Part shown: positions 3,031-4,694 of the stretch, piece by piece
Layout of the letters: each line of letters begins with the position of its first letter
How positions within the stretch are numbered: position 1 is the stretch's first letter
Notes under the pieces: generated by a model
Seen by the model: the letters and a program-made list of their open reading frames with translations, nothing else
What the model was told of the DNA's origin: nothing
Databases searched by the model: none
From: Candidatus Nitricoxidivorans perseverans
GTDB lineage: Bacteria; Pseudomonadota; Gammaproteobacteria; Burkholderiales; Rhodocyclaceae
Reading direction: 5' to 3'
Length of the DNA stretch: 64,000 nt
Assembly (NCBI GenBank): GCA_030246985.1
Contig: CP107246.1
Span: 372,282 to 436,281, forward strand
Translations under genes and position numbers: made by a program

Positions 3031-3771
3031 ATGGAAACCAAACTCTCCGAAGCGATGCTGTTGGCCGGGCTGGCCGAGGAATCGCGCGTGGACGATCTGA
3101 GGGAAGCGCTCTCGGCGGCCGTCTTCCAGATGGAAGGCCCGGTCAATGTGATGGCCTCGGTGCTGGCCACCATGGAACGGCGCGGATGCTGCCATGGCGC
3201 CGGCTTCGCCATTGGCGAAGCCCTGGCCGCCGCCCGTGCCGCGGTGGCCACGCTTCGCGGCGCCATACCGGAACACCGGTGGGAAGCGCCGACGGCGGTC
3301 AATCTCAACGATATCCTGCGGGACGTGCTGCAACTGTCCACGTCGCGCCTTCTGGCCACCGGCATCACGGTCACCTGCCAGCCCCAGCCGGTGCTGCACT
3401 CCGTGGCCGGCTACCCCAACCGCCTGCGGGCCATGGTCAAGGCATTGGTGGACAACGCCATCGAGGCCATGGACGGCCGCGGATGGAAAACGCGGGAGCT
3501 GTTTCTCGCCACCGCCGCGGAGGATGGCCGCATCGAGCTGGTGATCGAGGACAGCGGGCCGGGCATTCCGCCCGCCCTGCGCCTGAAGGTTTTCGAGCCC
3601 TTCTATTCCACCCGCAAGGACGGCGGGCATCTCGGCACCGGCCTGGCCACCGCCCGCCAGATCGCCCTGGACCACGGCGGCGGCATCGATCTCGAACCGC
3701 GCGAGGCGGGCGGTTGCCGTGTGCGAGTGACGCTGCCCCTGCGCAACACCGTCGGGGATGGCGAATCATGA
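3031..3771 (+). CDS. nifL: NifL-like anti-activator, short form (H-domain-like helix plus GHKL ATPase domain, no PAS domains)
   Basis: 246 aa. LREALSAAVFQMEGPVNVMASVLATMERRG resembles the NifL central helical region. GHKL motifs: VDNAIEAM (N box), EDSGPGI (G1), GTGLATARQIA (G2). ATGA overlap with the downstream nifA-like gene. Only 210 nt separate it from the divergent rnfA start, so upstream PAS domains cannot be encoded. Confidence 0.65.
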   Translation: METKLSEAMLLAGLAEESRVDDLREALSAAVFQMEGPVNVMASVLATMERRGCCHGAGFAIGEALAAARAAVATLRGAIPEHRWEAPTAVNLNDILRDVLQLSTSRLLATGITVTCQPQPVLHSVAGYPNRLRAMVKALVDNAIEAMDGRGWKTRELFLATAAEDGRIELVIEDSGPGIPPALRLKVFEPFYSTRKDGGHLGTGLATARQIALDHGGGIDLEPREAGGCRVRVTLPLRNTVGDGES

Positions 3772-4694
3772 TTATCGGCCGCTCACCGGCGATGCGGCGC
3801 GTTCTCGAACAAGTCCGCATGGTCTCGAAATGGAATACGACGGTGCTGATCCGTGGCGAGACCGGCACCGGCAAGGAACTCATCGCCAACGCCATCCATT
3901 TCGGTTCCCCGCGCGCCCGCGGTCCCTACGTGCGGCTCAACTGCGCATCGCTGCCCGAGAACCTGCTCGAATCCGAGCTCTTCGGCCACGAGAGGGGCGC
4001 CTTTACCGGCGCGCAGGCACAGCGCAAGGGCCGCTTCGAGATGGCCGACGGCGGCACGCTGTTCCTCGACGAGATCGGCGAGATCTCGCCGGCCTTCCAG
4101 GCCAAGCTGCTGCGCGTCCTTCAGGAAGGCGAGCTTGAGCGCGTCGGCGGCGGCCGCACCCTCAAGGTGGATGTGCGCGTCATCGCGGCGACGCACCGCG
4201 ACCTTGAGGCGGCGGTGGATGCCGGCAATTTCCGCGAAGACCTCTACTACCGCCTGAACGTCATGCCCATCCTCCTGCCGCCGTTGCGCGAGCGGCCCGA
4301 AGACCTGCCCGACCTGGCCCGCCACCTGGCGGAGCGCATCGGCGAAACGCAGGGCCGCAGGCTCATCCTCTCCGAGGCCGCCGTCCGGCGGCTCATGCAA
4401 TATGGCTGGCCCGGCAACGTGCGCGAACTGGAAAACTGCCTGGAGCGGGCGGCGGTGATGTCCGAATCGGGCGCCATCGACGCCGGCCTGATCCGGATCG
4501 ACCGCCAGCGCGATACGCCGACGCCCGTCAGCGCCGCCCCGGACATCCCCGGCCCCGACGAGCGCGCCCGCGTCGTCGCCGCGCTGGAGCAGGCCGGCTG
4601 GGTCCAGGCCCGCGCCGCACGCCTGCTCGGCATGACCCCGCGCCAGATCGCCTACCGCATCCAGACGCTGAACATCGAGGTCAAGCAGTTCTGA
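3768..4694 (+). CDS. nifA: NifA-like sigma54-dependent activator lacking an N-terminal GAF domain
   Basis: Last 308 aa of ORF 2505..4694. It starts at [12 protein letters not shown], directly in the AAA+ domain. Walker [15 protein letters not shown] loop, Walker [10 protein letters not shown]-terminal [28 protein letters not shown] is of NifA type. The upstream in-frame sequence overlaps the nifL-like CDS and looks non-protein-like. Confidence 0.75.

Follow-up and report, generated by a model that had tools for sequence, protein, structure and literature searches.

The window analysed here, a stretch of 64,000 nucleotides from the genome of Candidatus Nitricoxidivorans perseverans (contig CP107246.1), carries a nitrogen fixation (nif) gene cluster with a nifLA locus of unusual compactness. 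NifL–NifA is the textbook signal-integrating switch of nitrogen fixation and a main target for engineering ammonia-excreting diazotrophs. On balance, and judged from sequence, this locus appears to encode a functional, naturally minimised NifL–NifA anti-activator/activator pair. The first-pass annotation, which had considered the letters and their open reading frames (ORFs), described both regulators as unusually short. Their shortness is genuine: NifL and NifA of relatives comprise about 520 and 525 residues, respectively, compared with 246 and 308 residues here.

The nifL core gene (3031..3771, plus strand) was delineated using the ORF listing, Pfam, NCBIfam, an alignment with chain A of PDB entry 9qq6 and an AlphaFold2 (AF2) model. 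The N terminus of its 246-residue product corresponds approximately to residue 274 of Azotobacter vinelandii NifL, namely the boundary between PAS2 and the dimerisation-helix (DH) domain. The protein consists of a DH helical hairpin (residues ~2–78) and a GHKL domain (residues ~88–238). Pfam identified HATPase_c (residues 128–238) and nothing else in it, and both PAS1 and PAS2 are absent according to Pfam, the profile match and tblastn searches for remnants. The NCBIfam equivalog model for NifL (TIGR02938) matches with 241.6 bits over profile positions 263–493/494, while the runner-up family reaches 76 bits. The NifL-type DH (H) domain and the GHKL domain with its nucleotide-binding motifs are both present, and residues 10–237 align with residues 301–533 of 9qq6 chain A (E = 5e-45). 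The N-box Asn142 (Asn419 in A. vinelandii), the G1 motif DSGPGIP and the G2 motif GTGLA of the GHKL domain are intact and invariant across the family alignment. Phe32 occupies the H-box position (His305 in A. vinelandii NifL); the phospho-acceptor His is absent, and the protein is therefore not a kinase. The AF2 model (predicted local distance difference test score, 78.8) contains two long helices (residues 2–51 and 55–78) and a GHKL domain whose ATP lid is flexible, and its top fold match is 9qq6 chain A. Pfam, the span of the TIGR02938 match and the 9qq6 chain A alignment thus agree with the earlier description of the 246-residue protein as a helical H-like region plus GHKL only. By descent the pair is clearly NifL–NifA, and probably also by mechanism, although the sensor-domain features of the family are missing.

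The nifA gene (3768..4694, plus strand) was identified by Pfam, NCBIfam and an alignment with chain C of 9qq6. Its 308-residue product begins with MIIGRSPAM and comprises an AAA+ domain (residues 2–168), a lid (residues 174–242) and a helix-turn-helix (HTH) domain, HTH_8 (residues 265–299). Pfam recognises Sigma54_activat (249 bits), AAA_lid_14 and HTH_8; GAF is absent by Pfam, and tblastn revealed no remnant of it. Its Met1 falls opposite A. vinelandii NifA Met210, and the match extends over residues 210–520 of 9qq6 chain C (E = 3e-135). The NifA equivalog model TIGR01817 scores 530.4 bits, exceeding its cut-off of 528.85, with NorR as the next family at 345 bits, and the match covers profile positions 197–446 plus the HTH. 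Sequence and alignment locate the Walker A motif GETGTGKE (residues 30–37; 3855..3878, plus strand) and the GAFTGA sigma-54 contact loop (residues 77–82; 3996..4013, plus strand). Pfam and TIGR01817 therefore support the annotated view of a NifA that starts at the AAA+ domain and keeps GAFTGA and the HTH. The nifL stop and nifA start codons overlap by ATGA at 3768..3771 (plus strand), as had been noted. This arrangement, indicative of translational coupling, is also kept in three related loci described below (L001, L004 and L005).

The O2-sensitive, NifL-independent NifA class of alpha- and betaproteobacteria is distinguished by conserved Cys pairs, located where the AAA+ domain ends and in the linker leading to the HTH. 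Only a single Cys (in ENCLER) is found in this region of the window NifA, which lacks the Cys-pair motif. This definition of the class draws partly on PMC10590331. The first-pass annotation had also allowed that the two proteins might be generic NtrB/NtrC-like fragments and proposed domain searches. These returned HATPase_c for one product and Sigma54_activat, AAA_lid_14 and HTH_8 for the other; no PAS, HisKA, GAF or receiver (Response_reg) domain was detected by Pfam in either. NtrB–NtrC resembles the pair in having a DHp plus CA sensor core fold and a sigma-54 AAA+ activator as its output. In contrast, the window NifL has Phe32 in place of the phospho-acceptor His, and the window NifA has no receiver domain. 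On the window proteins, the scores of the NtrC and histidine-kinase models in NCBIfam are far lower than those of the NifA and NifL models. The wide margin of the NifL and NifA equivalog models, together with NifA-type upstream activator sequences (UASs) at nif promoters, shows that the proteins are specifically NifL and NifA and not generic fragments.

Among PDB sequences, the two proteins match best to the A. vinelandii NifL–NifA complex 9qq6 (NifL to chain A, NifA to chain C), and the A. vinelandii residue numbers used here were taken from these alignments. Chain A carries an 18-residue N-terminal tag (chain His323/Arg324 correspond to native His305/Arg306), while chain C follows the native numbering, as confirmed by Lys230, Tyr254 and Glu356. 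In A. vinelandii, NifL269–519 and NifA188–445 co-purify with ADP and are sufficient for complex formation (Bueno Batista et al. 2025, PMC12998190). The A. vinelandii complex was resolved only at low resolution, partly owing to its flexible sensor domains (PMC12998190). The domain boundaries of the window pair lie within a few residues of those engineered constructs. Unlike them, the window NifA additionally keeps the HTH and hence could act in vivo, and the truncation is natural, conserved and selected. By alignment, the natural pair is essentially the engineered A. vinelandii core plus the HTH. It thus represents a natural equivalent of the laboratory-made minimal complex, and the known mechanism is not overturned. 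Among the interface residues mutagenised in PMC12998190, Glu298 and Arg323 of NifL are kept as Glu25 and Arg50. In NifA, Lys230, Pro257, Arg258, Glu356, Glu366 and Asn373 are kept as Lys21, Pro48, Arg49, Glu147, Glu157 and Asn164, respectively, and Glu360 is conservatively replaced by Asp151. Such a compact natural complex would suit high-resolution structural work and simplified engineering of nif control.

The promoters of the cluster link the short NifA to its targets. The rnfA gene is divergent from nifL, with its true start at approximately 2822–2824, as placed by a profile match beginning at residue 46 of the longest ORF. About 207 nucleotides separate this start from the nifL ATG. The earlier estimate of 210 nucleotides, from which it had been concluded that no room is left upstream for an FAD (flavin adenine dinucleotide)-binding PAS domain, is close to this value, and the gap is filled by conserved promoter and UAS elements. 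A consensus scan located the sigma-54 (−24/−12) promoter of rnfA, TGGCATGAACCCTGCT (2833..2848, minus strand), at the same position as in L001, L002, L004 and L005. A NifA UAS of the form TGT-N10-ACA, TGTCGCAACTCCGACA (2937..2952), was found by motif scan and is common to the divergent rnfA and nifL promoters; it sits in an invariant block of a three-way alignment and is present in the same four contigs. The nifL sigma-54 promoter, TGGCACGGAATCTGCG (3003..3018, plus strand), lies about 12–14 nucleotides before the nifL ATG, and both the element and its spacing are conserved in L001, L004 and L005. Motif scans revealed equivalent pairs, all on the plus strand, at the target promoters of nifB (6759..6830; UAS TGTGCGATTGGCGACA, 6759–6774; sigma-54 element TGGCACAGGCGTTGCT, 6815–6830), nifH (12053..12172; UAS TGTCGGGACTGTGACA, 12053–12068; sigma-54 element TGGCACGCTCCTTGCC, 12157–12172) and nifE (20760..20834; UAS TGTCGTAAACCCGACA, 20760–20775; sigma-54 element TGGCACGGCGCTTGCG, 20819–20834). 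The occurrence of UAS and sigma-54 pairs upstream of nifB, nifH, nifE, rnfA and nifL argues that the 308-residue NifA is the activator of the window nif cluster and that nifLA is autoactivated. The sigma-54 promoters of rnfA, nifL and nifE end 9–14 nucleotides before the start codons, implying leaderless or near-leaderless transcripts.

Downstream of nifLA lie nifB, draG, draT, nifHDK and nifEN. The locus had been annotated as rnf genes divergent from nifLA, followed by nifB. The divergence of rnfA is confirmed; nifB does not directly follow nifA, as a 667-residue gene product is encoded between them (4754–6757). The draG gene for ADP-ribosyl-dinitrogen reductase hydrolase (8327..9214, plus strand; TIGR02662, 372 bits) and the draT gene for dinitrogenase reductase ADP-ribosyltransferase (11244..12128, minus strand, divergent from nifH; PF07357, 309 bits) make a post-translational control layer available that responds to ammonium and energy.

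In the mechanism we propose, NifL and NifA would be produced at similar levels from a single sigma-54 transcript, which NifA itself activates via the UAS at 2937. NifL's DH and GHKL domains would bind the AAA+ domain of NifA in the manner of the A. vinelandii NifL2:NifA2 complex and keep NifA inactive. In the NifL family, inhibition by direct binding is stimulated by ADP and PII; for the window pair, the conserved Glu298, Arg323 and NifA contact positions and the sufficiency of the homologous A. vinelandii core for binding (PMC12998190) speak indirectly for such inhibition. Since PAS1 (FAD), PAS2 and GAF are all missing from the window pair, the O2 and 2-oxoglutarate inputs of the A. vinelandii system cannot operate in it. 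The earlier claim that the pair cannot sense O2 through FAD or 2-oxoglutarate through GAF follows from the absence of these domains. Capture and release would no longer be tied to the FAD redox state or to 2-oxoglutarate at the GAF domain; they would instead have to depend on GHKL signals (ADP/ATP occupancy, PII/GlnK) or on how strongly the operon is expressed. Control by O2, carbon and part of that by nitrogen has probably been handed to other layers, such as the nearby-encoded DraT/DraG. The remaining inputs are probably only those acting on the GHKL domain (ADP, PII). The earlier suggestion of adenylate and PII as sole inputs seems to fit the A. vinelandii truncation work (PMC3466315, PMC12998190, PMC6490700). 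Once PAS1 is removed, NifL no longer responds to O2 but still responds to fixed nitrogen, a signal that reaches the GHKL domain through PII (PMC3466315). A GAF-less NifA still activates transcription (PMC9866876).

Control of an activator by a trans-acting inhibitor has parallels in PspF–PspA and HrpS–HrpV, in which an AAA+ plus HTH activator without a regulatory domain is controlled in trans by an inhibitor that binds the AAA+ domain. NifL has been likened to PspF–PspA-type control (PMC12998190). In contrast to PspF–PspA, the window inhibitor is a histidine-kinase-like DH–GHKL protein and not the PspA coiled coil, the inhibitors are not homologous, and the regulon is nif.

Several observations weigh against a working minimised pair. 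The NifL score falls just short of the curated TIGR02938 cut-off (241.6 versus 242.45 bits), as expected because half of the model has no counterpart in the protein. At the interface, Glu488 of A. vinelandii NifL is changed to Gln210 and Tyr254 of NifA to Phe45 (His in L005), and the H-domain residues His305/Arg306 of A. vinelandii NifL are Phe and Gln in the window protein. No PII gene occurs within the 64-kb window. A check for a second, full-length nifLA, proposed in the first-pass annotation, found no second nifL or nifA within the 64 kb of genome that it covered; a full-length nifLA or a different activator may lie beyond them. The main question concerns release. In A. vinelandii, 2-oxoglutarate bound to the GAF domain enables NifA to escape from ADP-bound NifL (PMC6490700). 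Because of this requirement, a GAF-less NifA beside an intact NifL could remain inhibited at all times if the affinities had not been re-tuned. The pair thus raises the question of how NifA escapes NifL without a 2-oxoglutarate-bound GAF domain. One tentative answer, which we regard as possible though not the likelier outcome, is that the clade controls nif with a bare NifL(DH–GHKL)–NifA(AAA+–HTH) core, from which NifA escapes by a PAS- and GAF-independent route. ATP/ADP or PII-UMP acting at the GHKL domain, by either direct competition or allostery, would be a candidate route. If true, such an escape would expose a release mechanism hidden in model systems.

An alternative that we consider rather unlikely keeps the pair functional and makes NifL blind to signals. 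NifL would then only titrate or buffer NifA, a fixed stoichiometric damper on the positive-feedback loop of NifA. All environmental control would lie elsewhere: a different sigma-54 activator, for example NtrC, would govern nifLA transcription, and DraT/DraG would switch off nitrogenase. The loss of every recognised sensor domain agrees with this alternative, as does the presence of draT and draG within the cluster. The sigma-54 promoter and NifA UAS before nifLA make control by expression level possible, and a GAF-less NifA without any NifL in a related organism (L087, see below) indicates that this lineage can apparently run nif without NifL sensing. However, the nucleotide-binding motifs of the GHKL domain are invariant and under purifying selection, which would be needless for a passive binder, and the A. 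vinelandii PII signal enters through this same domain (PMC3466315). A minimised pair that retains GHKL inputs remains the reading we prefer.

Selection on the truncated genes bears on a further alternative, in which the pair is a decaying remnant heading for loss after nif regulation was taken over by an activator encoded outside the window. Two large deletions have stripped every regulatory domain, and the view is confined to 64 kb of the genome. Other rearrangements mark the nif region: cooS separates nifD from nifK, toxin–antitoxin genes are present, and a GGDEF gene intervenes between nifA and nifB. Nevertheless, the ratio of nonsynonymous to synonymous substitution rates (dN/dS; Nei–Gojobori) across the window and its diverged relatives, three lineages in total, is 0.13–0.16 for nifL and 0.06–0.14 for nifA, with dS up to 0.6–0.8. 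These values indicate that the truncated genes have long been under purifying selection. Frames, start codons, the ATGA overlap, the promoter and UAS, and the Walker A, GAFTGA, HTH and GHKL motifs are all intact, and the deletions lie precisely in frame at domain boundaries. Decay is accordingly improbable.

The short genes themselves are real. An independent assembly in Logan, the 1.9-kb contig L170 (SRR20819805), is 100% identical to window positions 2039–3896. It was retrieved by an exact-protein look-up with NifL, while the same look-up with NifA gave no match. The comparison of orthologous loci that the first-pass annotation recommended revealed two diverged relatives with an identical truncated architecture. 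In L004 (SRR22387847), the NifL is 95% identical and the NifA starts with MSTRDNIVGRS. In L005/L006/L090, from Hainich groundwater well H41, the NifL is 85% identical with its true start at METKLSEA, and the NifA starts with MIIGRSPAM. When the PAS region of 372-residue relatives and the GAF region of full-length NifAs were used as tblastn queries, no PAS or GAF remnant was found in any of the six frames of the window; the sole match (3741–3836) corresponds to the opening part of the AAA+ domain. This null result, the identical L170 and the occurrence of the same short genes in diverged relatives that come from different samples exclude a concealed longer gene or a frameshift, the earlier proviso under which the pair would have dissolved. 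The reading of the short genes as an artefact of assembly or sequencing, or as longer genes with wrongly called starts, is thereby effectively refuted despite the long spurious open frames of this high-GC genome (the nifA frame, for instance, is open from 2505), the 207-nucleotide intergenic region being filled by conserved promoter and UAS elements.

To place the pair among its relatives, reference NifL and NifA were mapped onto 83 loci from genome and metagenome scans. The N terminus of NifA could be judged in 76 of these loci, and GAF is lacking only in the window, L004 and L005/L006/L090. Most NifLs in the surveyed loci are full-length. PAS1 is missing in L001/L002, L034 and L106, and both PAS domains are missing in the window clade, in L003 (252 residues, beside a full-length NifA) and in L020, where no nifA follows. 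The relatives thus form a series of NifLs that are full-length (~520 residues), without PAS1 (~372 residues) and without either PAS (~250 residues). An exhaustive search of 50%-identity cluster representatives yielded 66 classifiable members of the NifL family: 39 full-length proteins, 12 with a single PAS and 15 that look core-only, although miscalled starts may account for some of these 15. On this sequence survey, reduced NifLs recur, while the combination of a core-only NifL with a GAF-less NifA is confined to the small window clade. A PAS-less NifL is therefore, by the same survey, not unique to the window locus, and the rare part is its GAF-less partner. For further members of the minimal clade, the metagenome scan yielded only the Hainich groundwater contig. 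The scan of genome contigs gave no close relative (best match, 59% identical). No description of a natural PAS-less NifL or of a GAF-less NifA partner was found in the literature; databases already label short homologues as NifL. The existence of a naturally selected core-only pair indicates that, in some environments, PAS1, PAS2 and GAF can all be dispensed with.

The nearest relatives of the window NifL are PAS1-less NifLs of 372–395 residues, encoded in the Rhodocyclales/Zoogloeaceae metagenome contigs L001/L002 and represented by P0003, P0044 and others. The nearest longer ones (P0003 and others) have 372 residues and 62–67% identity and lie, in L001/L002, beside a 525-residue NifA with GAF. 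The 372-residue NifLs align with residues ~154–520 of full-length 520-residue NifLs, such as that of Sulfuritalea (L009), and therefore lack PAS1 only. These loci share with the window the layout of rnfA divergent from nifLA (followed by nifB in L001/L002), the promoter–UAS–promoter unit and the ATGA coupling. Unlike the window pair, they keep a PAS2-like domain in NifL and GAF in NifA. The intergenic promoter–UAS–promoter unit is homologous between the window and L001, and so are the opening codons of nifL, which read MET in the window and MKT in L001; thereafter the window protein resumes at the start of the DH helix. Similarly, the L004 NifA keeps MS(T)R, compared with MSAR in L001, and then resumes at DNIVGRS; the junction in the window and L005 NifAs differs from that of L004 by a further 15 nucleotides. 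With ancestral start codons, ATGA coupling, promoter and UAS all kept, both truncations read as clean in-frame internal deletions at domain boundaries that left the expression signals in place. The probable ancestor of the pair is a nifLA operon, in a betaproteobacterial lineage of Rhodocyclales type, from which PAS1 had already gone. One in-frame deletion would have removed the PAS2-like domain of NifL (codons ~4–128), and another the GAF domain and linker of NifA (codons 2 to ~209). The graded relatives, comprising full-length, PAS1-less and core-only NifLs and GAF-less NifAs without NifL, document a stepwise simplification of the regulatory system.

Some details of these relatives stand apart. 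Five extra N-terminal NifA codons are present in L004 (1534–1566) relative to the window (3768–3785), reading MSTRDN-IVGRS versus M-IIGRS. The window shares the short NifA start with L005, yet its nifL is nearer to that of L004 (dS of 0.20 versus 0.62). This mismatch points to recombination within the locus or to a parallel 15-nucleotide deletion. L087 (4186–5142) and L088 (222–1178) encode a 318-residue GAF-less NifA, 82% identical, upstream of nifB and without nifL. This nifA lies 22 nucleotides from a divergent LysR-type gene, and the untranslated stretch immediately before its ATG reads VVGRTGA after a stop codon, indicating that a rearrangement cut the gene there. The protein of L087 (P0132), considered as a further member of the minimal pair, is a real GAF-less NifA; it was rejected as a separate event, since nifL is missing. 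A short NifA match situated at a contig end, P0179, gives no information. In L020, from a metagenome-assembled genome of Methylococcaceae, a short NifL-like gene (3686–4633) with DH and GHKL by similarity is followed by iscS, iscU and iscA, with no nifA.

The gene inserted between nifA and nifB (4754–6757) encodes a 667-residue CHASE-PAS-GGDEF diguanylate cyclase and is preceded by a sigma-70-like promoter, TTGACC-16-TATAGT (4699–4726). In related nifLA loci, the gap between nifA and nifB holds other small genes. We rejected this protein as a trans-acting replacement sensor, given its own sigma-70-like promoter, its absence from related loci and the lack of evidence linking it to NifLA.

Further insertions are seen within the nif cluster. 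A complete cooS gene (~14621–16537) with its own Shine–Dalgarno sequence encodes the catalytic subunit of an anaerobic Ni-CO dehydrogenase (TIGR01702, 612 bits). It is located between nifD (13122–14570) and nifK (~16555–18123), giving the operon order nifH-nifD-cooS-nifK, for which no literature was found. The GC content is 70–75% in cooS and 62–64% in nifD and nifK. Close cooS homologues (79–87% identity; L171–L173) lie outside a nif context, and the next are Aquificae/Persephonella enzymes at ~62%. The product might remove CO, a nitrogenase inhibitor. The interval from a nifX-like gene to nifE holds, on the minus strand, a ParE toxin/Phd antitoxin pair (19619–20171) and a GNAT acetyltransferase gene (20217–20723), and a nucleotidyltransferase-like pair (10084–11122) lies between yaeQ and draT.

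Directly after fdxN, the region 24442–30066 encodes a TIGR03790-family protein, a large protein that matches no family, and a PapB-like radical SAM/SPASM peptide maturase (28425–29648). This region may be a locus for a ribosomally synthesised and post-translationally modified peptide adjoining the nif cluster. The last part of the window (37921–64000) is occupied by an exopolysaccharide/exosortase (EpsH) locus. It includes genes for Wzz/GNVR, for polysaccharide export, for ATP-sulfurylase/APS-kinase and for glycosyltransferases, and a DDE transposase gene (40303–41988) interrupts it. Past approximately 56 kb of the window, the GC content drops from ~67% to 54–60%.

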